Shown: positions 5,453-57,631 of the stretch, in pieces | How the letters are laid out: each line of letters begins with the position of its first letter | Numbering within the stretch: the stretch's first letter is position 1 | Assembly: GCA_016182045.1 (NCBI GenBank) | Contig: JACOYE010000009.1 | Location: forward strand, 1,328 to 65,327 | Direction: 5' to 3' | Source: Candidatus Microgenomates bacterium | GTDB taxonomy: Bacteria > Patescibacteriota > Microgenomatia > Daviesbacterales > UBA10151 | Length of the DNA stretch: 64,000 bases | Translations under genes and position numbers: made by a program | Notes under the pieces: model-generated | Told to the model about the DNA's origin: nothing | What the model saw: the letters and a program-made list of their open reading frames with translations, nothing else | The model's database searches: none

Positions 5453-6436
5453 TTATTTTCCTTTCATTTTTAAAACATGAGTTACGCCCTTAATAATAGC
5501 TTCTTTGGTTAAACCGAATTTTTCCAAAAGTTCATTTGGCTCGCCGGATTCACCAAATCTATCTTCAACTCCAATAATTTTTATAGGTACCGGATAATTT
5601 TGAGAAACTACCTCCGAAACAGCTGAACCTAATCCTCCATGGATTTGATGTTCTTCCACAGTTACAATTGCCCCACATTCTTCTGCAGCTTTTAGTATGG
5701 TATCTTTATCTAAAGGCTTAATAGTGTGGGAATTTATTACTCGAACACTAATTTTGTGCGATTCCAGCTCTTTCGCAGCTATTAAAGCTCTATACACCAT
5801 TTGACCGCAGGCGATCACAGCTACATCCTTACCATCTAGATAAATCTCTGCTTTACCAATCACAAATGGGGTTTGCTCTGTCGTGATAACAGGCACTTTT
5901 TCCCTGGATAACCTTATATAACAGGGTTGGGGATGATGAGCTATAGCTAAGGTAGCTTTTCTGGCTTCAATGGCATCTGTTGGACAAATCACCACCATAT
6001 TTGGTAAGGCTCTGGTGATGGCCATATCCTCCAAAGCCTGATGTGTAGCACCATCAGGGCCAACAGAAATACCAGCATGGGAACCAATAATTTTGACAGG
6101 TCTATCGTTATAACAAATGGTGGTTCTGATTTGTTCCCAATTCCTGCCTGGGGAAAACATGGCATAAGAGGTGATAAAGGGAATCTTTCCCACCGCTGCC
6201 ATGCCGGAGGCAACAGTTGCTAAATTTTGTTCAGCCACTCCCATCTCCACAAACCTGTCTGGAAATTTATCTTTAAAAGCTTGAGTCCTGGTTGACTCTG
6301 TCAAATCAGCACACAAAGCCACCACATTTTTATTCTCTTCACCAGCTAAAACTAAACCCTCTCCATATCCATTTCTGGAAGGCACTTGCTCAATATCTTC
6401 ATCAAACAGCTTTGTATTTAGATGTGGATCACTCAT
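5453..6436 (-). CDS. transketolase, C-terminal (pyrimidine-binding) subunit
   Basis: Transketolase pyrimidine-binding and C-terminal domains. It forms a split-tkt pair with the upstream ORF, overlapping it by 8 nt. Confidence 0.85.
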   Translation of the reverse strand: MSDPHLNTKLFDEDIEQVPSRNGYGEGLVLAGEENKNVVALCADLTESTRTQAFKDKFPDRFVEMGVAEQNLATVASGMAAVGKIPFITSYAMFSPGRNWEQIRTTICYNDRPVKIIGSHAGISVGPDGATHQALEDMAITRALPNMVVICPTDAIEARKATLAIAHHPQPCYIRLSREKVPVITTEQTPFVIGKAEIYLDGKDVAVIACGQMVYRALIAAKELESHKISVRVINSHTIKPLDKDTILKAAEECGAIVTVEEHQIHGGLGSAVSEVVSQNYPVPIKIIGVEDRFGESGEPNELLEKFGLTKEAIIKGVTHVLKMKGK

Positions 6437-7316
6437 GTTCGCTCCTAATCTTTCCTTGTAAGGTTCTTAGTTCTTTTAAGGCCACTTCTGCCTGATGGCC
6501 TTTTGGTGGAGCTCCTTTGACATCTCCCGCATCTGGTGGAATACCATGCCATTTGAAATCTTTCTCCATAAAATCTACCCCTTTCCCAGGAATAGTGTGA
6601 GCTATAATTACCACTGGTTTTTCATATATGGCCTTTGCTTCATTGCAGGCATCTATAATCTGTTCAAAATTATGCCCGTCAATTTCAAGTGCGTGCCAGC
6701 CAAAAGCTTCATACTTTTCCTTTAAAGGTTCCAAAGGCATGATATTTTCTGTAAAACCATCAATTTGAATATTATTTCTATCCATAATGGCAGTGATATT
6801 ATTCAGTTTATTTTTGCCGGCAAACATAACTGCCTCCCAGGTATTACCAGCATCTTGCTCTCCATCAGACATTAAACAATAAACCCATCTTTTGGAATTA
6901 TCCATCTTCAAAGCCAGAGCCATCCCACAAGCTTGAGATAAGCCGGAACCTAAGGGACCGGAAGTTGTTTCAACACCAGGAAGAGCACCTCTGTGTGGAT
7001 GACCCTGAAGTCTGGTACCCAACTTTCTTAAAGTTTTTAACTCTGAAACAGGAAAATATCCAGCATGTGCTAAAGTAGCATACCAAACAGGACAGATATG
7101 ACCATTTGATAAAACTAACATATCCCTTTCATCCCAGTTCGGATTTTTGGGATCATGTTTTAAAATATGAAAATACAAAGCAGTAAAAATATCTGCCATA
7201 CCCAAAGGACCTGCAGAGTGACCTGATCCAGCTTCAAGCAACATCTTGATGATATCCTGACGGACCAAATTGGCCTTTTCTTCTAATTTATGGAAATCAT
7301 CTATCTTTTTTGACAT
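6429..7316 (-). CDS. transketolase, N-terminal (TPP-binding) subunit
   Basis: TPP-binding region, including GHSAGPLGMADIF and the GDG...N motif. Confidence 0.85.
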   Translation of the reverse strand: MSKKIDDFHKLEEKANLVRQDIIKMLLEAGSGHSAGPLGMADIFTALYFHILKHDPKNPNWDERDMLVLSNGHICPVWYATLAHAGYFPVSELKTLRKLGTRLQGHPHRGALPGVETTSGPLGSGLSQACGMALALKMDNSKRWVYCLMSDGEQDAGNTWEAVMFAGKNKLNNITAIMDRNNIQIDGFTENIMPLEPLKEKYEAFGWHALEIDGHNFEQIIDACNEAKAIYEKPVVIIAHTIPGKGVDFMEKDFKWHGIPPDAGDVKGAPPKGHQAEVALKELRTLQGKIRSEHE

Positions 7317-7339: not shown

Positions 7340-7999
7340 TTAAAGGGTAAAGGCTTGTTCCTCATCATTGTCAACTCTTAAATGAATATGTTTGCCCTCT
7401 TTTATTTCCCTGCCAAATTCTGTGATGGCCACCAATACTTCATGAGGTGAGTTGACAATTTTAAAAACAGACAAATCACCTTCCCGAAGATGCATATTTT
7501 TTTTAAAAGCTTCAATAATCTCATGCCAAAAATTACCGTAAAGAATCAATGGCTTGTGGTGACCAAAGTAAAGCCGAGCCAGACCCCAAGCCATACCAAA
7601 TTCAGAGATAGTCCCTGTCCCGCCATTTAAAACCACATAAACTTGTCCACGTTCCAAAAGCCTCAAAGTTCTTTCCACATAATTTTGGGTGATAACTTCC
7701 TCATCTACCTGATTTTGCGGATCTTTGCCTTCATACCTGATTATCTCTTTGGGGTAGAATGTCACCCCTGTCACTTTACCGCCTACTGCATGAGCACCTT
7801 CGGTGGCTGCTCTCATCACCCCTGGCCCTCCGCCATTAACCACCAAATAACCAGTTTGAGCCAATATTTTGGCCACATTAAAGGCATCTTTGTAAAGGTT
7901 ACTATTCACTGGCGCATCGGCAAATCCAAAAATGGCCACCCGGTCAATATTTCCCGCCTTCTCGTGATCTTTTGGATTTTCGCAGTTAAGGTTATCCAT
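7340..7999 (-). CDS. LOG-family (TIGR00730) nucleotide 5'-monophosphate phosphoribohydrolase
   Basis: GGGPGVM and LNGGTGTISE motifs of the LOG / lysine-decarboxylase-like family. Confidence 0.8.
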   Translation of the reverse strand: MDNLNCENPKDHEKAGNIDRVAIFGFADAPVNSNLYKDAFNVAKILAQTGYLVVNGGGPGVMRAATEGAHAVGGKVTGVTFYPKEIIRYEGKDPQNQVDEEVITQNYVERTLRLLERGQVYVVLNGGTGTISEFGMAWGLARLYFGHHKPLILYGNFWHEIIEAFKKNMHLREGDLSVFKIVNSPHEVLVAITEFGREIKEGKHIHLRVDNDEEQAFTL

Positions 8000-11481: not shown

Positions 11482-11512
11482 AAAGCTCACGTCGCGAGTT
11501 TTTTTGTGGGAG
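11481..11512 (+). terminator. terminator-like element, flanking-repeat copy 2
   Basis: gaaagctcacgtcgcgagtttttttgtggg directly follows the stop codon. It is identical to copy 1 across the 18-nt GC-hairpin and T-run core. Confidence 0.55.
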
Positions 11513-11514
11513 CA

Positions 11515-11543
11515 TAGTCGAATGTATTTTCTTGTGCTATAAT
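11515..11543 (+). promoter_or_regulatory. extended -10 promoter (TGcTATAAT)
   Basis: tgctataat at 11535-11543. The -35 is weak. Confidence 0.45.
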
Positions 11544-11548
11544 CTAAC

Positions 11549-11770
11549 TATTCTTTCGGGGTTTTGTGTAAGTCAAAATCGGTGGTAAAACTCCACGATC
11601 CCGCACCGTCTGGTGCAGGAACGAACTGGTGAAAATCCAGTAGCGACCGTACAGTCGGAATGAAAGAAAGACGTCGTCCCCGCGAAAGCGGGGAACCATA
11701 AAATAATTATATGGATCCCAGACTTGATCTGGAATGACTGATGAATTTAGCCCCGAAAGGGGCTTTTTTG
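11549..11770 (+). ncRNA. orphan small RNA (~220 nt), class unknown
   Basis: Its own promoter lies upstream. It is GC-rich with multiple hairpins (GCACC-GTCT-GGTGC, ACTGG-TGAAAAT-CCAGT, CCCCGC-GAAA-GCGGGG). It ends in a canonical intrinsic terminator (AGCCCCGAAAGGGGCT plus T6 at 11749-11770). No + strand gene follows, and the minus-strand ORF over it looks spurious. Confidence 0.5.
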
Positions 11771-11898
11771 ATTCCTTCAGTCTCGAGCTTAACAATTTCT
11801 GAACGTGGTAAAATTCCAAAAGCGGTTTCTTTGAAGCTAGTTGCTGATTTAAGTTTAGTAGATTTTCTCACAGCTCAATTCTAACACAACAGTAGCTG

Positions 11899-12171
11899 TT
11901 ACCTAAAAAGAGCTCGAGCTTGTTTGCGAGAGATTTTTTCCCCTTCCAGACGCATAGTATGGTAGACATCTTCAGGAAGAAGATTTTTTACATCAGGTTT
12001 TTTACCCATATTTAAATAGCGTTTCTTAAAGGTTCTAAACGCTTGGATAAGGCTTTTGTTTTTATTCACTAATTGAATGCTGGTCATACACCTATTATAG
12101 CACTTTTTACTATTTCTAATCTGGCCTAGTGGTATAATCGAGCCTAACATATGGACGAACTCTGTCTCCAA
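11899..12171 (-). CDS. hypothetical small protein; possibly a truncated Fic N-terminal-like fragment
   Basis: The C-terminal HTMRLEGEKISRKQARALF resembles the xIEG motif of Fic-family N-terminal regions, but no Fic core follows. Low confidence. Confidence 0.25.
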   Translation of the reverse strand: METEFVHMLGSIIPLGQIRNSKKCYNRCMTSIQLVNKNKSLIQAFRTFKKRYLNMGKKPDVKNLLPEDVYHTMRLEGEKISRKQARALFR

Positions 12172-12184
12172 ACTTTTTTCTTAA

Positions 12185-12235
12185 AACGCTTGATTTTGCT
12201 GAGCACTCCGGTCAGGACCCATCCTATCGTTATAA
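12185..12235. repeat. conserved ~50-nt 3'-flank element, copy A
   Basis: ttgctgagcactccggtcaggacccatcctatcgttataacta abuts the stop codon of 12236..13006. It is about 75% identical to copy B at 13745-13797. Confidence 0.6.
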
Positions 12236-13006
12236 CTAAGTAATTAGTGACTCAAACTTTGGCACCAAGCTCTCAACTTCATTAATCATAGATTGAATTG
12301 TTTCAATTAGTATTTCTCCCTCAATAATGCCAGGCTCATTTAGAACAATATTAAATCTAAATTGCATATTTGGAATTGGTTTTGCATCTGGACCATCAAT
12401 AAAAAGCTCATCTCCAACCTTAAGTGGAAATAGTATATCTGCAGGCTTGATAAATAAAGGTATGGCAGGTACTTTCAAGTCAGGAAAAGCTTTGGTCGTT
12501 GATACTTGTAGATGTTTACCAATATCCATACTTCCAAATGAGGATCCTACCGTAACAAGTAATCGATGTTTATCAATATTATTCAGCTGAGAAATTCTCC
12601 ATAGATTAATGTTGCCTTCTTTGTATGGCTTAACTGAATCAATTATGTCTTTAGCTTGTTGTGAAATTCCTTCAGTTTTTTTAATTTTCTCTCGTTGATA
12701 ATGATCAAAATCTTGGGATATCGGAAAATAGATATGACGGCCTATGTTACCATTTCCAGAACCAATGGTGAAAAGCTGATAAGCTAAATAGTCCAAAGCA
12801 CTTCTTAAATTCTGGATGATATCTCCTGTTATAAAAGCAATCTTTTCCGGAACCTGCTCTGCTTTAACAAGATAATAAATTAAACGCTTTGATTGTGGAT
12901 CGGATTTAGTATCAATTTTGTAAGGTTGTGAATCAAAAAAAGATTTTACCTCTTTTTGCAATTCCTCTTTTAACTGCTTAGCGCGTTCAATTTTACTTGT
13001 CCACAT
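12236..13006 (-). CDS. hypothetical protein (256 aa), accessory-island gene
   Basis: Clean ORF with no recognisable family. Confidence 0.5.
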   Translation of the reverse strand: MWTSKIERAKQLKEELQKEVKSFFDSQPYKIDTKSDPQSKRLIYYLVKAEQVPEKIAFITGDIIQNLRSALDYLAYQLFTIGSGNGNIGRHIYFPISQDFDHYQREKIKKTEGISQQAKDIIDSVKPYKEGNINLWRISQLNNIDKHRLLVTVGSSFGSMDIGKHLQVSTTKAFPDLKVPAIPLFIKPADILFPLKVGDELFIDGPDAKPIPNMQFRFNIVLNEPGIIEGEILIETIQSMINEVESLVPKFESLIT

Positions 13007-13085
13007 AAATGTGATGGCTTACGATCACTTTAGGTGCCCATCTTAACTGGCACAAGTCGACTATGTGGGAACTTTTTATTCCTAT

Positions 13086-13655
13086 CTATAACTTCCATTC
13101 TTTAGTTAATTTTTTTACTAAATCCTCTATATATTGTTCTAGGGTTGTGAAATCTTTCCTTGGATTGACAATTAAGGAATATGTCTTGTCCGTATTTTCC
13201 AGATCAATTATCTTAAATCTTACCTCCCCATTTGATGACAGACTACTTCGCTTATGAGCAATAATTTCCTTTCCGTACTTTTCATCTGGATGTGCTGAAA
13301 GTCTATGCCTTTTTTCTTTTATTTCAATTATCCACTCATCAAAGACCGAAGACTTAGATAATTTTTTACCAAAATTTATACATGAAGCTATATAGGCATA
13401 CGTTGCTATTGCAGAGCTGAAAATTTTGTACTGCATATCACTATATTTAGGATGATCAGATGTAGCTAGTTCATTAAGTTGTGGAACATTATTTTCCTCA
13501 AAAACTCTTACTTGGGCTTCGGCGTAGGTTAAATAAAGATATAGAGCTGATAACAGAAATCCTCTTTTATACCATAAAAGATCTGTTTGCATTAATTTAT
13601 TAACAGATAAATAAAGAGAATTAAGATTATCGTATGTATAAGGAATATCTGGCAT
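13086..13655 (-). CDS. hypothetical protein (189 aa), accessory-island gene; possible HEPN-like Rx4-6H motif
   Basis: Clean ORF. An RHRLSAH (R-x5-H) motif sits in a predicted helical region. This is speculative. Confidence 0.45.
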   Translation of the reverse strand: MPDIPYTYDNLNSLYLSVNKLMQTDLLWYKRGFLLSALYLYLTYAEAQVRVFEENNVPQLNELATSDHPKYSDMQYKIFSSAIATYAYIASCINFGKKLSKSSVFDEWIIEIKEKRHRLSAHPDEKYGKEIIAHKRSSLSSNGEVRFKIIDLENTDKTYSLIVNPRKDFTTLEQYIEDLVKKLTKEWKL

Positions 13656-13744
13656 TTAAATTGAAGTATATCAGAAGCTAAAATTCTTTACACTTGGAAC
13701 TTAATTTAAGTTGTTACAATAGTCTAAAGTGTTAAAAAAAGCTG

Positions 13745-13797
13745 ATCGTCCAAGTTTGCTGAGCGTACCGGTCTAGGACCATTTAGTCCTATAACTA
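13745..13797. repeat. conserved ~50-nt 3'-flank element, copy B
   Basis: ttgctgagcgtaccggtctaggaccatttagtcctataacta abuts the stop codon of 13798..14394. Confidence 0.6.
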
Positions 13798-14394
13798 TTA
13801 TATCTTCTTAAGTCTTTTTATGATAGATTCGCAGATGTCTGAAAAAGTATTAGCCCAATGTTCGTTTATTTCCTCACCCTCAGATAATTCTTCATGCAAG
13901 TGGACAAAGTTTCTTAAATCTTTTATTAAATGTATTTTGTAAAATTCTTTCTCAGAAATTAGATTGTTACTTAAAGCCGCATCAAGTGCGATATCAAATT
14001 TTTCTTTTCCGGTATATTCTCTTAGCACAGCTTCGATCAGCGAACCATACAAGATAATTGTTGGTTTCCATAACCTATTTTTTAGACATACTTTTGCAGA
14101 TTTGTAATCTCGTTGAAGAAGAAGTCTCAATCTATTGTTGTTTATAAAATCAAAAGTCCTACTACCAGCAATCTTACGATAATCAATATCAGTTCTTTCA
14201 TATTGTTTCTTCATTCGATTTCTTTGAAATTCTCTGAAATTGTCTGAAACAATTTTTGCACCTGGATATTTACGTAAATAGTCAGCCTTACTCAAATCAT
14301 GTTTTTTTAACAGATGAGTGGTCATATTCGTAAATTCATTTTGGCACTCCAAACATTTAATCTTCATAGACATATTTGACAAGATCTTTCTCAA
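13798..14394 (-). CDS. MucR/Ros-like C2H2 zinc-finger protein with an unknown C-terminal domain
   Basis: The N-terminal KCLECQNEF...THLLKKH...YLRKYP matches the MucR/Ros zinc-finger signature. The C-terminal ~140 aa are unknown and contain RNFVHLH (R-x5-H). The gene starts 13 nt after the tRNA-Gln CCA end. Confidence 0.5.
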   Translation of the reverse strand: MRKILSNMSMKIKCLECQNEFTNMTTHLLKKHDLSKADYLRKYPGAKIVSDNFREFQRNRMKKQYERTDIDYRKIAGSRTFDFINNNRLRLLLQRDYKSAKVCLKNRLWKPTIILYGSLIEAVLREYTGKEKFDIALDAALSNNLISEKEFYKIHLIKDLRNFVHLHEELSEGEEINEHWANTFSDICESIIKRLKKI

Positions 14395-14406
14395 AAACTC
14401 TTAGCT

Positions 14407-14480
14407 TGGCTGCTGGGCTTGGATTTGAACCAAGATAGATAGCTCCAGAGGCTATCGTCCTACCGTTAGACGACCCAGCA
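14407..14480 (-). tRNA. tRNA-Gln (anticodon CUG), CCA encoded
   Basis: Manual fold: acceptor stem TGCTGGG paired with CCCAGCA (U1-A72), discriminator G73 and encoded CCA; D-arm GTCT-AACGGTA-GGAC; anticodon stem ATAGC paired with GCTAT around loop CTCTGGA; T-arm CTTGG-TTCAAAT-CCAAG. Confidence 0.8.
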
Positions 14481-34548: not shown

Positions 34549-34909
34549 GTGCCTAGGAAGAGAGTAAGCCAGATTCTGTTTTCTCGCTTCGCGAAGCGAG
34601 TAGATGATCATTTATCTAATGCTCCTCATTTCGACTAGTTGGCGAGCAGCCTAAGTCGGTTCTAGGATTGCAGCGGGGAGGATTGCCCTTCGACTCGTCC
34701 CGATTACATCGGGACTCGCTCAGGGCTATAGCCCTTTGCTTATCGAATACCCTGTGGCTTGATCGTTTCACTCGGCGCCACCCGAATCGTCACTGTTGCT
34801 CTATACTCGCGGTCACCCGGTCTCGCCTTGCGGCGGACACCCTACTCTTTGCTGTCTGGACTTTCCTGTCCCGATTTAATCGGGACCGATCATCCTTCTT
34901 CCTAGGCTT
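34549..34909 (-). ncRNA. rnpB: RNase P RNA (bacterial type A-like)
   Basis: On the minus strand: P1 AGCCTAGGAAGA paired with TCTTCCTAGGC; P2 GATGATC with GATCATC; P3 hairpin GGTCCCGATTAAATCGGGAC; universally conserved ACAGGAAAGTCCAGAC (P4 5' strand); CAACAGTGA (J11/12-like); P4 3' strand CTAGAACCGACTTAG. A TATAAT -10 sits just upstream. The overlapping + strand ORF 34668-34967 is spurious. Confidence 0.8.
34583..34600. repeat. perfect GC palindrome CTCGCTTCGCGAAGCGAG embedded in rnpB
   Basis: It lies between the P2 3' strand and the P1 3' strand of the RNase P RNA and belongs to the same repeat family as the coding-region insertions. Confidence 0.6.
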
Positions 34910-55302: not shown

Positions 55303-55374
55303 CGGAGACTAGTTCATCGGTAGAACGCTCGCATGGGGTGCGAGAAGTACGGGGTTCAATTCCCCGGTCTCCGA
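55303..55374 (+). tRNA. tRNA-Pro (anticodon GGG)
   Basis: Manual fold: acceptor stem CGGAGAC paired with GTCTCCG (the C1-G72 pair typical of bacterial tRNA-Pro), then U8 A9; D-arm GTTC-ATCGGTA-GAAC; anticodon stem CTCGC paired with GCGAG around loop ATGGGGT; T-arm CGGGG-TTCAATT-CCCCG; discriminator A. No CCA is encoded. Confidence 0.8.
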
Positions 55375-55381
55375 CTTTTAT

Positions 55382-56158
55382 ATGAAACTAATCTCATTAA
55401 ATACCTGGGGTGGAAAAGTTTACAAACCACTTATAAAATTTATCCAAGATTACTCAAAAGATACGGATATCTTTTGTTTTCAGGAAGTTTTCTACACTAA
55501 CTCCAATATTAAAGAGGATTTTGGTTTTAGAACCAATTTACTTAATGAAATAAAGAAAATTCTAAAAGATCATATCTGCTTTTTTGCCCCCACCATAGAC
55601 AATTATCTGGTGGGAAGCTTTAAAAAAGAGTTTACAAATTATCATCTATCTTCGGGGTTAGCAATCTTTATTAATAAAAATCTTCAGGTAAAATCAGCTG
55701 GAGATTTTTTTGTTTTTAGACAAAAAAATGATTATGAGTTAGGAAATTACAATACCATGCCCAGAAATATTCAATTTATCAATTTTACTAAAAGCAATAA
55801 AAAATTCACTATTTGTAATGTGCATGGAATTTGGGTAGATAAAGATAAGGGCGATACTCCTTCCAGAATAAAACAATCAGAAATGATACAGAAATTTTTA
55901 GATAACGAGGCGGGAGAGAAAATAGTGTTAGGAGATTTTAATTTAACATTAAATACTGAAAGTATAAGGATTTTAGAAGAAAATTTAAGGAATTTAATCA
56001 AGGAATATAAAATTTTATCTACCAGAAGTAAGTTCTTCCCCGGAGATGAAAGGTATGCTGATTTTACTCTAGTCTCATCAGGGATCAAAGTGATCTATTT
56101 TCAAGTTCCTAATATTGAAGTATCTGATCATCTTCCAATGATACTGGAATTTTTATGA
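55382..56158 (+). CDS. endonuclease/exonuclease/phosphatase (EEP) family protein, paralog 1
   Basis: CFQEV, GDFN and SDH motifs of the EEP fold. Confidence 0.7.
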   Translation: MKLISLNTWGGKVYKPLIKFIQDYSKDTDIFCFQEVFYTNSNIKEDFGFRTNLLNEIKKILKDHICFFAPTIDNYLVGSFKKEFTNYHLSSGLAIFINKNLQVKSAGDFFVFRQKNDYELGNYNTMPRNIQFINFTKSNKKFTICNVHGIWVDKDKGDTPSRIKQSEMIQKFLDNEAGEKIVLGDFNLTLNTESIRILEENLRNLIKEYKILSTRSKFFPGDERYADFTLVSSGIKVIYFQVPNIEVSDHLPMILEFL

Positions 56159-56219
56159 ATGATTGTTCCAATGTTGATGAAATCCATCTGTTTAGGATAG
56201 AATCTACCAATGGAGTGAT

Positions 56220-56849
56220 ATGAAACAGTCCTTGCGAATAATCGATATTTCTTTACCCATCGGCGAGAAAATGGTAATTTTCCCCAACAACCCTCCTGTT
56301 AAATTCAAACCTCTGAGAACACCTACTACCTACATTTCTGAGATCACATTTGGATCTCACACAGGAACTCATATCGATGTTCCCAGGCATATTTCTAAAA
56401 AGGGAATCGGTGTAGACAAAATTAATTTAGATCAACTTATTGGACCCTGTAGGGTTTTAGACATGACCCATTGTAAAGTATCTATCACTACTGATGATTT
56501 TAGAAAAGAAGATATCCAAAAGCAAGAACGAATTTTAGTTAAAACTAATAATTCTCTAAAGGGTTTTAAAAAGTTTTATCCAGATTATATTTATCTTGAT
56601 GGAGATGCGGCAGAATTTTTGGCTTCTAAAAAAATTGTCCTTTTTGGCATTGATTCTTTATCAGTCAAAAAGCAAGGTTCACCTGATACAAGACCACATA
56701 CAGAGCTTTTAAAAAACAATATTGTCATTATAGAAGGCCTAGATTTATCAGAAGTTACTCCGGGCCAATATGATATTTTCTGTCTACCTTTAAAACTAGT
56801 CGGATTTGATGGGGCTCCTGCTAGAACAATTCTTATAAATTCAACATGA
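56220..56849 (+). CDS. cyclase-family protein (kynurenine-formamidase-like)
   Basis: HTGTHIDVPRH metal-binding motif. Confidence 0.7.
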   Translation: MKQSLRIIDISLPIGEKMVIFPNNPPVKFKPLRTPTTYISEITFGSHTGTHIDVPRHISKKGIGVDKINLDQLIGPCRVLDMTHCKVSITTDDFRKEDIQKQERILVKTNNSLKGFKKFYPDYIYLDGDAAEFLASKKIVLFGIDSLSVKKQGSPDTRPHTELLKNNIVIIEGLDLSEVTPGQYDIFCLPLKLVGFDGAPARTILINST

Positions 56850-57631
56850 AGCTTATTTCTTTAAACACCTATGGTGGTAAATATTTTAAACCACTGATCA
56901 ATTTCATTAGACAGTTTGAAAGTGATATTGACATATTTTGTTTTCAAGAAGTTTTCAGTACAACTTCCAACTTCAAACAATTTCCAGAATATAGAGCCAA
57001 TTTACTGGAAGAAATATCGAAAATCTTACCAGAGTTTAATTACTTTTTTAATCCAGTAATGGAAGAATTGGATACCTATGCAAACCCGGTAGATTTCGAT
57101 TTAAAGCATGGCCTGGCAATATTTGTAAAAAAGGATATTTTATTAAAAAATTATCAAACCTTCTTTCTTTATAAAGATAGTGTTGTCAAAATAATTAAAA
57201 AAGATTTTTCAGATATCCCTGTTAATATCCAATTGCTAAGTTTTATAAAAAAAGATACAGAATTTATAGTTTGTAATTTTCATGGTACCGCTTATCCCGG
57301 ATCTAAGTTGGATACTTCTCAAAGAATTGAACAATCACAAAAGATTATGGATCTTCTTAAAGAAAAGGTTGGTGCAAAAATAGTTGTGGGAGATTTTAAC
57401 TTGATGCCCAATACACAAAGTGTCAATATCCTAGAAAAGGATTTGATAAATTTAATCAAGGAATACAATATAGACAAAACCAGATCTAGATTGTCTCCAT
57501 TTTATGGAAAATCTGATTTTCAAAAATTTGCAGATTATACATTTGTCACAAATGATGTTAATGTTGAAAAATTTGAAGTTCCTGAAGTGGAAATCTCTGA
57601 CCACCTACCAATGATTCTTGAATTTTCCTGA
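56846..57631 (+). CDS. EEP family protein, paralog 2
   Basis: Paralogous to 55382-56158, with the same motif set. Overlaps the cyclase stop by 4 nt. Confidence 0.7.
   Translation: MKLISLNTYGGKYFKPLINFIRQFESDIDIFCFQEVFSTTSNFKQFPEYRANLLEEISKILPEFNYFFNPVMEELDTYANPVDFDLKHGLAIFVKKDILLKNYQTFFLYKDSVVKIIKKDFSDIPVNIQLLSFIKKDTEFIVCNFHGTAYPGSKLDTSQRIEQSQKIMDLLKEKVGAKIVVGDFNLMPNTQSVNILEKDLINLIKEYNIDKTRSRLSPFYGKSDFQKFADYTFVTNDVNVEKFEVPEVEISDHLPMILEFS

Follow-up and report, generated by a model that had tools for sequence, protein, structure and literature searches.

We analyzed a stretch of 64,000 nucleotides from a Candidatus Microgenomates bacterium (contig JACOYE010000009.1 of assembly GCA_016182045.1, positions 1,328 to 65,327; this whole stretch is referred to here as the window) and found that its positions 11899 to 14480 probably represent a tRNA-Gln-anchored array of four single-gene mobile cassettes, which would have entered by site-specific recombination. 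On the minus strand, a tRNA-Gln(CUG) is followed by four open reading frames (ORFs) and by copies of a short sequence, termed element B here, in the order tRNA, cassette 1 with copy B2, cassette 2 with the decayed copy B3, cassette 3 with copy B1, and cassette 4, which has no B at its 3' side. A preliminary description of this DNA, made from the letters alone, had proposed a cassette array or integration hotspot at the tRNA, and comparative data from related loci bear this out; the tRNA, recovered by both ARAGORN and the Rfam tRNA model, and the coordinates of the four ORFs were confirmed as well. The encoded proteins correspond to database entries whose locus tags begin with HYT18_. The 3' end of the tRNA reads ...CAGCAGCCA and is both the anchor and the insertion point of the array.

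Element B is ∼42 bp long, with the consensus GTTATAAGGATaAgAAGGTCCTAGACCGGCCyGCTCAGCCA (agtTATaagGAt.aaAaGGTCCTAGACCGGCCcGCTCAGCcaa from the family copies). To retrieve loci that contain it, we scanned a collection with one representative genome per species and the Joint Genome Institute (JGI) metagenomes with the pattern GGTCCTAGACCGGNNNGCTCAGC, an exact 20-base core. This yielded 17 loci from the genomes, where about one chance match is expected given the size of the collection, and 88 from the metagenomes; the loci are for the most part short contigs from metagenomes. With a profile derived from the copies, we obtained 175 matches, of which 149 are distinct copies (a lower bound on the size of the family) from ∼110 loci, mostly of Microgenomates and the candidate phyla radiation (CPR). 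The named hosts are Curtiss-, Shapiro-, and Woesebacteria, WWE3, Microgenomates, and “Patescibacteria group.” The retrieval pattern leaves the results on strand, spacing, tRNA association, and junctions unbiased.

The copies of B are arranged in a regular manner. Two to seven of them occur in each of 32 loci, and adjacent copies lie on the same strand in all 58 pairs, with a median spacing of 1.03 kb (interquartile range, 0.55 to 1.53 kb), that is, roughly one gene per unit. The ORF that follows a copy has a median length of 160 amino acids (aa). For 80% of the copies, a same-strand ORF starts within 150 nt downstream, with B typically ∼50 nt ahead of this start, and in one-third of all copies an ORF ends no more than 10 nt from the element, often by means of a stop codon within its GTTATAA. 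The metagenome contig L005 (loci are denoted by an L and a number) carries the element seven times on one strand, most copies being placed after a small gene and before a TGnTATAAT promoter. B-like copies were also seen in tandem, two or three of them 56 to 74 nt apart with no gene between, at L116:2380-2515, L087:99-190, and L077:757-830.

The junctions of the cassettes are exact and are interchangeable between the tRNA and B, since the same cassettes start right after the ...AGCCA of the tRNA in one genome and after the ...GCTCAGCCA of a B in another. This was found for L063 and L019 (96% identity over 122 nt; the locus with the tRNA junction is named first in each pair), L012 and L043 (92% over 51 nt), L109 and L031 (81% over 101 nt), and, for a cassette with a GIY-YIG gene, L018 and L058 (100% over 26 nt). 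Breakpoints between near-identical strains fall at the same place: L050 and L058 are 99.8% identical across the tRNA, the first cassette, and its B and are unrelated past the last base of B. In addition, a 2.2-kb block with 98.7% identity lies directly after the tRNA in L063 and after a B in L019, an arrangement that would be the expected product of one more cassette inserted on the tRNA-proximal side. Given that the tRNA retains its locus-specific acceptor sequence, the crossover, if any, must therefore lie within or beside the last few bases (AGC/CCA). A second motif, (A/G)GGGCACCC..GTGACCG, sometimes followed by ..CTCGAAAAGCCC, was observed at the 5' ends of otherwise unrelated cassettes just after the junction (11 of 149 by regular expression); it is found in the window (13004-13044, minus strand) and also in L005, L013, L053, L063/L019, L065, L087, L069, and L057.

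At its other end, the cassette is delimited by B, which travels with the gene upstream of it. Between the window and L005, homology extends from ∼45 nt before the ATG of gene 3 (78% protein identity) to the GCTCAGC of the element, and the flanks are unrelated. The sole homologue of gene 2, in L116, has intact B copies on both sides, one of them at the position matching the decayed B3 of the window, and the homologue of gene 1 in L077 (62% identity) is followed by B copies. In L008, a Ktedonobacteraceae genome, gene 3 homologues have decaying B remnants right after the stop codon, and the homologue in L006, which follows a tRNA-Ser, has a B remnant directly past it. Three of the four window genes thus have homologues elsewhere that also have the element behind them, and since B is shared with the upstream gene in L005, L116, L077, L008, and L006, we take a cassette to consist of a leader, an ORF, and B. 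The L006 locus (5870-6830) belongs to a higher-GC member of the Patescibacteria, where a 256-aa gene 40 nt past tRNA-Ser(CGA) is followed by the B-like remnant and by a gene for an HhH-GPD glycosylase; this hints at related cassettes that use other tRNAs in other lineages.

Among 106 loci scanned with ARAGORN, tRNA-Gln (CUG or UUG) is far more common than any other tRNA. Counting the window, 24 distinct loci contain a tRNA-Gln, and in every one of these 24 it shares the strand of the B copies and stands on their 5' side; other tRNAs in the loci are mostly its upstream neighbors. The region upstream of the tRNA (gltX, a gene for a 346-aa protein, and one for a PBP-like protein) is kept in four to six loci, distant relatives, while the content of the array differs. 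Synteny is thus retained on the gltX side, and the gene order after the tRNA varies between relatives, with no core-like conservation seen. The genes of the distal flank in the window (rpiB and the gene for a 699-aa protein) were not found in any of the comparison loci.

In its 3' half, B also resembles the 3' end of tRNA-Gln. When aligned to tRNA-Gln 3' ends, it reaches a mean score of 16.0, compared with 12.2 for other tRNAs and 12.1 for shuffled sequences (Mann-Whitney test, p=0.002). The best case is L024, where GGTCCGAGCCCAGGCCCCGCAGCC of the tRNA matches GGTCCTAGACC-GGCCCGCTCAGCC of B over a stretch that takes in the T-loop, the 3' strands of the T-stem and of the acceptor stem, the discriminator, and CC(A). 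The acceptor stem of tRNA-Gln varies by locus while B stays constant. A second copy of the window's own tRNA-Gln 3' end was not found in the window, and a search for a direct repeat of the 3' end of its tRNA-Gln or tRNA-Pro was likewise negative. Interrupted tRNA-Gln 3' halves, with an insert of 30 to 50 nt in the T-loop (CTAGGTTCG[TTTACCCTGA...GAAGGG]AATCCTAGTCCCGCAGCCA), occur directly after junctions in L113 (after the tRNA at 2117), L076 (after the B at 7762), and L066 (after the tRNA at 6609), and L058 has a plain 26-nt partial tRNA-Gln between duplicated copies of a 13-mer.

In 24 of the 149 copies, B is fused to a conserved region of ∼100 nt upstream of it, termed module A here (L005:5450-5560, L017, L023, L024, L030, L036, L051, L069, L075, L079, L081, L096, and L099). 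It is composed of ATATCAAA-N-TATATCA, a T-run, TGTCTCA boxes in inverted and direct orientation, a -35 box TTGTCT, and an extended -10 box, and it often opens arrays that have no tRNA, such as L005. Module A may act as a promoter-bearing landing pad of an alternative kind, or it may supply arm-type binding sites. An identity with the promoter of tRNA-Gln was rejected, as the regions upstream of the tRNAs are unlike it.

Based on these observations, we propose that the cassette unit would be a short leader, one ORF, and a B of ∼42 bp that ends in ...GCTCAGC(C/A)A and whose 3' half would imitate the T-loop, T-stem, and acceptor 3' end of tRNA-Gln. On entry, the B of the cassette would recombine site specifically with the last bases of tRNA-Gln (...AGCCA) or with a resident B; the newcomer would land beside the tRNA, with older cassettes shifted outwards. 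Transcription may start from the tRNA promoter or from promoters of the cassettes, and the recombinase would be encoded away from the locus and act in trans. The comparisons show the layout of the array, its position behind tRNA-Gln, junctions that are exact and can be exchanged between tRNA and B, the points at which near-identical strains diverge, and the passage of B with its upstream gene; the recombination chemistry, the identity of this enzyme, and the present-day mobility of the cassettes are what we infer here. The features of the array and of its immediate surroundings are collected in Table 1.

Table 1. Features of the array and the adjacent region, in positions of the window
Feature	Position	Strand	Evidence or remark
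tRNA-Gln(CUG)	14407..14480	-	ARAGORN; Rfam tRNA at 59.8 bits
Cassette 1 (short leader, ORF 1, element B2)	13755..14406	-	From the CCA of the tRNA to GCTCAGCAAA of B2
Cassette 2 (leader, ORF 2, decayed B3)	13045..13754	-	Bounded by the end of B2 and by the point where the conserved cassette 3 leader begins
Cassette 3 (conserved leader, ORF 3, B1)	12195..13044	-	Leader at 13007-13044, AAGATGGGCACC...
Cassette 4 (own promoter, Shine-Dalgarno, ORF 4)	11899..12194	-	Read directly from the sequence
ORF 1, predicted Ros/MucR-type zinc finger and DUF4145 (HEPN-type)	13798..14394	-	Pfam, homologues
ORF 2, 189 aa, mainly helical, contains RHRLSAH	13086..13655	-	Near-orphan
ORF 3, 256 aa, large uncharacterized family	12236..13006	-	Predicted HEPN-like four-helix core and beta domain
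ORF 4, 62 aa	11899..12087	-	ATG at 12087; extended -10 box TGCTATAAT at 12094-12102; Shine-Dalgarno
Element B2, GTTATAGGACTAAATGGTCCTAGACCGGTACGCTCAGCAAA	13755..13795	-	nhmmer against the family profile, 41.2 bits, E=2.8e-11
Element B3 (decayed), GTTATAGATAGGAATAAAAAGTTCC...	13045..13092	-	5' half aligns with B, 3' half diverged
Element B1, GTTATAACGATAGGATGGGTCCTGACCGGAGTGCTCAGCAAA	12195..12236	-	nhmmer, 18.0 bits, E=5.6e-4; 2 mismatches to the pattern
FMN riboswitch aptamer	11548-11675	+	RF00050, 86.7 bits (gathering 66.2), E=2.3e-18, model positions 1-138
Strong intrinsic terminator past the riboswitch	11749-11770	+	Terminator scan

B3, which overlaps the stop codon of ORF 2, had been described as a third, short tail of the repeat; a remnant of B does stand there, in the form of a decayed copy that scores under the threshold of the family profile. 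The proposed start of gene 1, 13 nt past the CCA, holds only with a TTG codon, while the ATG at 14373 lies 34 nt past it. The GC content is 30 to 36% over 11800-14400 and 40 to 48% in the immediate flanks, a dip that is mild because the mean of the whole window is itself 36.8%. Four independent Logan contigs cover the region; two start inside the tRNA, one inside B2, and one within gene 2, and all four end at 12092, which suggests branching of the assembly graph at these points.

We considered several simpler identities for B. It is not a terminator, since it has no hairpin with a T-run, the terminator scan is silent, and fold z-scores are near 0, and with only two copies in 64 kb it is neither a dispersed repeat of the repetitive extragenic palindrome (REP) type nor one of the ordinary genome-wide terminators that the preliminary description had named as the alternative. 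Integron sites of the attC type are not borne out, as DNA and RNA folds with flanks gave z-scores of -1.15 to +1.35 with no hairpin on either strand; only a mini-stem of 4 to 5 bp forms. When GTTATAAC was read as the R''/R' core and the -10 box that comes next as its partner, a long single-strand hairpin was again not formed on either strand. A coding remnant was rejected because an indel separates the two window copies, which have no common reading frame, and a phage attP because two of three scans of IMG/VR were empty and the third gave only two unrelated matches of 60% GC. B matches no Rfam family in the window, L005, and seven further loci even at permissive thresholds, and in Rfam and the literature searched we found no description of the element, its sequence, or tRNA-Gln cassette arrays in the CPR.

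Several points weigh against an array of mobile cassettes built by site-specific recombination. The first is that the enzyme is purely inferred, as no recombinase was found in the window and none recurs in the loci. A tyrosine or serine recombinase motif is absent from 2,238 ORFs from 820 kb of loci (116 in number) and the window, and no recombinase family recurs in 150 distinct ORFs of 200 to 480 aa within 6 kb of B (Pfam); ORF clustering likewise brought up none that recurs, all of these searches being local and heuristic. Pfam models run on 20 mid-sized ORFs of the window recovered housekeeping proteins, including transketolase, SecDF, RecA, MetK, and MiaA, and no recombinase, in line with the absence of an integrase noted at the outset. 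Neither a circular intermediate nor an empty site was observed, and B has no obvious inverted pair of binding sites around a spacer beyond GGTC-CTA-GACC. Some arrays open without a tRNA, at module A fused to B, and the array in the window is incomplete, with one B decayed and none behind its last gene. Retrieval by an exact core pattern inflates the apparent conservation of the core of B. Finally, a few B-bearing metagenome-assembled genomes (MAGs) are labeled Gamma- or Deltaproteobacteria; these host labels, which were lightly checked, are doubtful and probably due to mis-binning, because the contigs have a GC content of 37 to 47% and one such MAG has 1.8 kb in common, at 83% identity, with a Shapirobacteria contig.

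Each of the alternatives that we weighed covers part of these observations, and none covers all of them together, namely, a single conserved site family, units of one gene, junctions that are exact and interchangeable, and the absence of element genes. The one that survives best, which we nevertheless regard as unlikely, is that full-size tRNA-targeting integrative elements of the tycheposon or prophage type, each with an integrase, inserted at tRNA-Gln time and again, decayed, and left their cargo between partial-tRNA att scars. The tRNA anchoring and the tRNA-like B would fit such a history, as would the true partial tRNA-Gln 3' halves present as direct repeats in L058, L066, and L113, and partial tRNAs between successive insertions are known from tycheposons (bioRxiv 10.1101/2020.12.28.424599). 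However, B is one conserved family over more than 100 loci and is unlike the local tRNA-Gln, the units are of ∼1 kb with one gene whose ORF ends a few bases from B, remnants of integrase or replication genes were not found in the 820 kb, and B is still present behind its gene where this has been transferred to other phyla.

Less probable again is homing, in which a small GIY-YIG endonuclease would cut tRNA-Gln or B and cassettes would be copied from a donor by recombinational repair, with B or the tRNA end as short homology. A gene for a GIY-YIG protein of ∼90 aa (PF01541, E=1e-17) is indeed the most frequent gene associated with the arrays (14 loci, for example, L018:1874-2185, L024:3432-3938, and L109:1885-2157) and is sometimes the first after tRNA-Gln, and a recA is present in the window. 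Yet the GIY-YIG gene is absent from the window and from most arrays, and it behaves as a cassette itself, given that one and the same GIY-YIG cassette stands behind the tRNA in L018 and behind a B in L058. Moreover, the tRNA side of the junction has only ∼5 to 10 bases in common with B, which is too short for RecA-type homology.

We give slightly less weight still, and little overall, to B being a regulatory or RNA-level signal (a tRNA-like processing mark, an operator, or an upstream promoter element) that is carried passively with genes. Its position between ORFs, ahead of the next start, and the promoter boxes of module A just upstream of about one-sixth of the copies speak for such a role, and cassette 1 probably relies on read-through from the tRNA. 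On the other hand, neither a stable or conserved fold of the RNA or DNA nor an Rfam family is available for it, the variants of the GGTC/GACC stem are not compensatory, and a signal of this kind explains neither the divergence of strains exactly at the last base of B nor the interchange of B with the tRNA end. An ordinary origin, as repeats that arose by chance or as terminators common to the genes of a conserved operon, can be dismissed: although the window alone holds only a pair of good copies, of which one scores a weak 18 bits, a 25-nt pattern of the repeat matches twice where shuffled sequences give 0.00 expected matches, no terminator is called, and the architecture holds across the family.

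Site-specific insertion of cassettes at tRNA-Gln therefore remains our preferred reading, and it invites comparison with known systems. As in integrons and clusters of attC sites lacking integron integrases (CALINs), the arrays run in one direction, consist mostly of single-gene cassettes whose 3' site moves with the upstream gene, and carry miscellaneous cargo with many unknowns and orphans and with toxin- or defense-like genes; insertion apparently takes place at a fixed, promoter-adjacent platform, with older cassettes pushed outwards (L063 and L019). Unlike in integrons, there is no IntI gene near the arrays, the site is a conserved sequence of ∼42 bp rather than a folded single-strand hairpin with R''/L''/L'/R' boxes, the platform is a tRNA 3' end or a module of promoter and B rather than attI, and some cassettes have their own promoters.

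Integrative mobile elements exploiting Xer (IMEX) and pdif modules are integrase-less modules moved by a host recombinase. The cassettes described here are likewise small, with short sites and no recombinase of their own, which implies an enzyme acting in trans; they differ in that B has no recognizable dif-like 11-6-11 site and forms direct repeats in arrays instead of inverted pairs. None of the results presented here links Xer to the B arrays. The tycheposons of Prochlorococcus are similar in having a tRNA hotspot, tRNA-like repeats between insertions, and newcomers that push older material inward to the island, as well as a streamlined host genome without other mobile elements. A tycheposon brings a tyrosine or serine recombinase of its own, often replication genes, and cargo of up to at least 10 kb (bioRxiv 10.1101/2020.12.28.424599). 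In contrast, the units here are of ∼1 kb with one gene and neither recombinase nor replication genes, and the repeat is a family of its own and not a copy of the host tRNA end.

Taken further, and put forward tentatively, the arrays may represent a previously undescribed, integron-like form of gene capture in the CPR/Microgenomates. In such a system, the tRNA-Gln 3' end, or a promoter with a pseudo-tRNA module, would serve as landing pad and promoter, a double-stranded, tRNA-mimicking site of 42 bp would take the place of attC, and the recombinase would be unlinked and maybe new.

The cargo of the window looks defense-like, so that the defense or toxin flavor assigned to the island earlier is plausible. 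ORF 1 encodes 198 aa from TTG or 191 aa from the ATG at 14373, and the protein on record has 189 aa. Its Ros/MucR-type zinc finger, part of the preliminary description, is supported by Pfam and by the annotation of homologues, and the fusion to a second domain also stands; this domain, previously taken as unknown, appears to be DUF4145. Both matches (ROS_MUCR, E=6.7e-5; DUF4145, E=1.4e-3) are under the curated Pfam cutoffs, and many of the 117 homologues have PF05443 and/or PF13643 on record. The best sequence match in the PDB is Ros (2jsp), which is not significant (E=0.37). DUF4145 is a divergent HEPN RNase domain, and in the antiphage protein RAZR (PD-T7-4), a zinc-finger RNase activated by a ring, it is joined to a zinc finger (PMC13017515). 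The product of cassette 1 is predicted to have a similar layout, with a single small protein whose N-terminal part would hold the zinc finger and whose C-terminal part would be the DUF4145 domain, where the R...H motif RNFVHLH is located; its zinc finger is of the Ros/MucR type, in contrast to the Cys4 ribbon of RAZR, and PADLOC matched no model to ORF 1 or ORF 2.

ORF 2 has a single homologue (71% identity) in 5.8 billion proteins, no match in Pfam, PADLOC, or NCBIfam, and an AlphaFold2 model with a predicted local distance difference test (pLDDT) score of 38. A relationship to gene 3 was rejected (hhalign probability, 0.1%). Gene 3, with its four-helix core and beta domain, is a candidate for a HEPN-like fold. 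The product of gene 4, which is a member of a small family, most likely has 62 aa and starts at the ATG at 12087, because a promoter and a Shine-Dalgarno sequence precede this codon and the small homologues (60 to 79 aa) all align from query residue 25 to 35 onwards. Its earlier description as a truncated N-terminal fragment of Fic did not hold, as there is no Pfam match, a BLAST comparison with a Fic protein of the neighboring type gave E≥3, and the homologues are stand-alone proteins. Gene 4 and its homologues have a TMRLEGE motif in common, the only feature reminiscent of the inhibitory helix of Fic, which presumably fits the inhibitory motif, [ST]xxxE[GN], seen in Fic antitoxins such as VbhA; a Fic gene is not adjacent to gene 4, and Fic genes lie near the arrays in L005 and L116. 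Elsewhere, the cargo includes proteins with a beta-lactamase fold, a methyltransferase, serine hydrolases, NUDIX, SRPBCC, and SET proteins, an LD-carboxypeptidase, and DUF5343, and ∼45% of it is unannotated.

Beyond its distal end, the array is adjoined by what had been called a standalone small RNA ending the run of genes. This region (11548-11770; fold z-score, -5.0) is in fact a flavin mononucleotide (FMN) riboswitch, with the complete six-helix aptamer and a terminator, on the plus strand and thus opposite to the array genes, convergent with the array and facing its distal end. Antisense ORFs aside, no plus-strand ORF of at least 50 aa lies between 11676 and the array, which leaves the riboswitch without a downstream gene for the synthesis or transport of riboflavin, and none of the other 116 loci has a comparable riboswitch. 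The riboswitch adjoins the array, and no result indicates that it is a member of it; it could be what is left behind by a riboflavin gene since lost, or it could yield an antisense or decoy transcript under the control of FMN. Elsewhere in the window, a class A RNase P RNA (34549-34905, minus strand) scores 107 bits, just over the gathering threshold of 100, lacks large parts of the model, and appears to be a reduced form. On the plus strand, in the region 55303-57631, tRNA-Pro(GGG) is followed 7 nt on by an Exo_endo_phos gene (55382-56158), and a second gene of this Pfam family is located at 56846-57631.

Members of the CPR/Patescibacteria have tiny genomes with few recognized mobile elements and show extensive gene exchange. 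A tRNA-anchored cassette array with its own attachment site would provide a concrete mechanism for this exchange, and since the junctions are defined to the base, the mechanism is directly testable and candidate enzymes can be traced by co-occurrence. It would extend the integron concept of platform and cassettes to another site chemistry and another platform, and it would single out hundreds of small proteins, so far unknown, as cargo that is mobile and under selection, some of them resembling antiphage RNases. If true, such arrays would be a main route by which ultra-small bacteria that are poor in mobile elements swap defense and accessory genes, including with other phyla.

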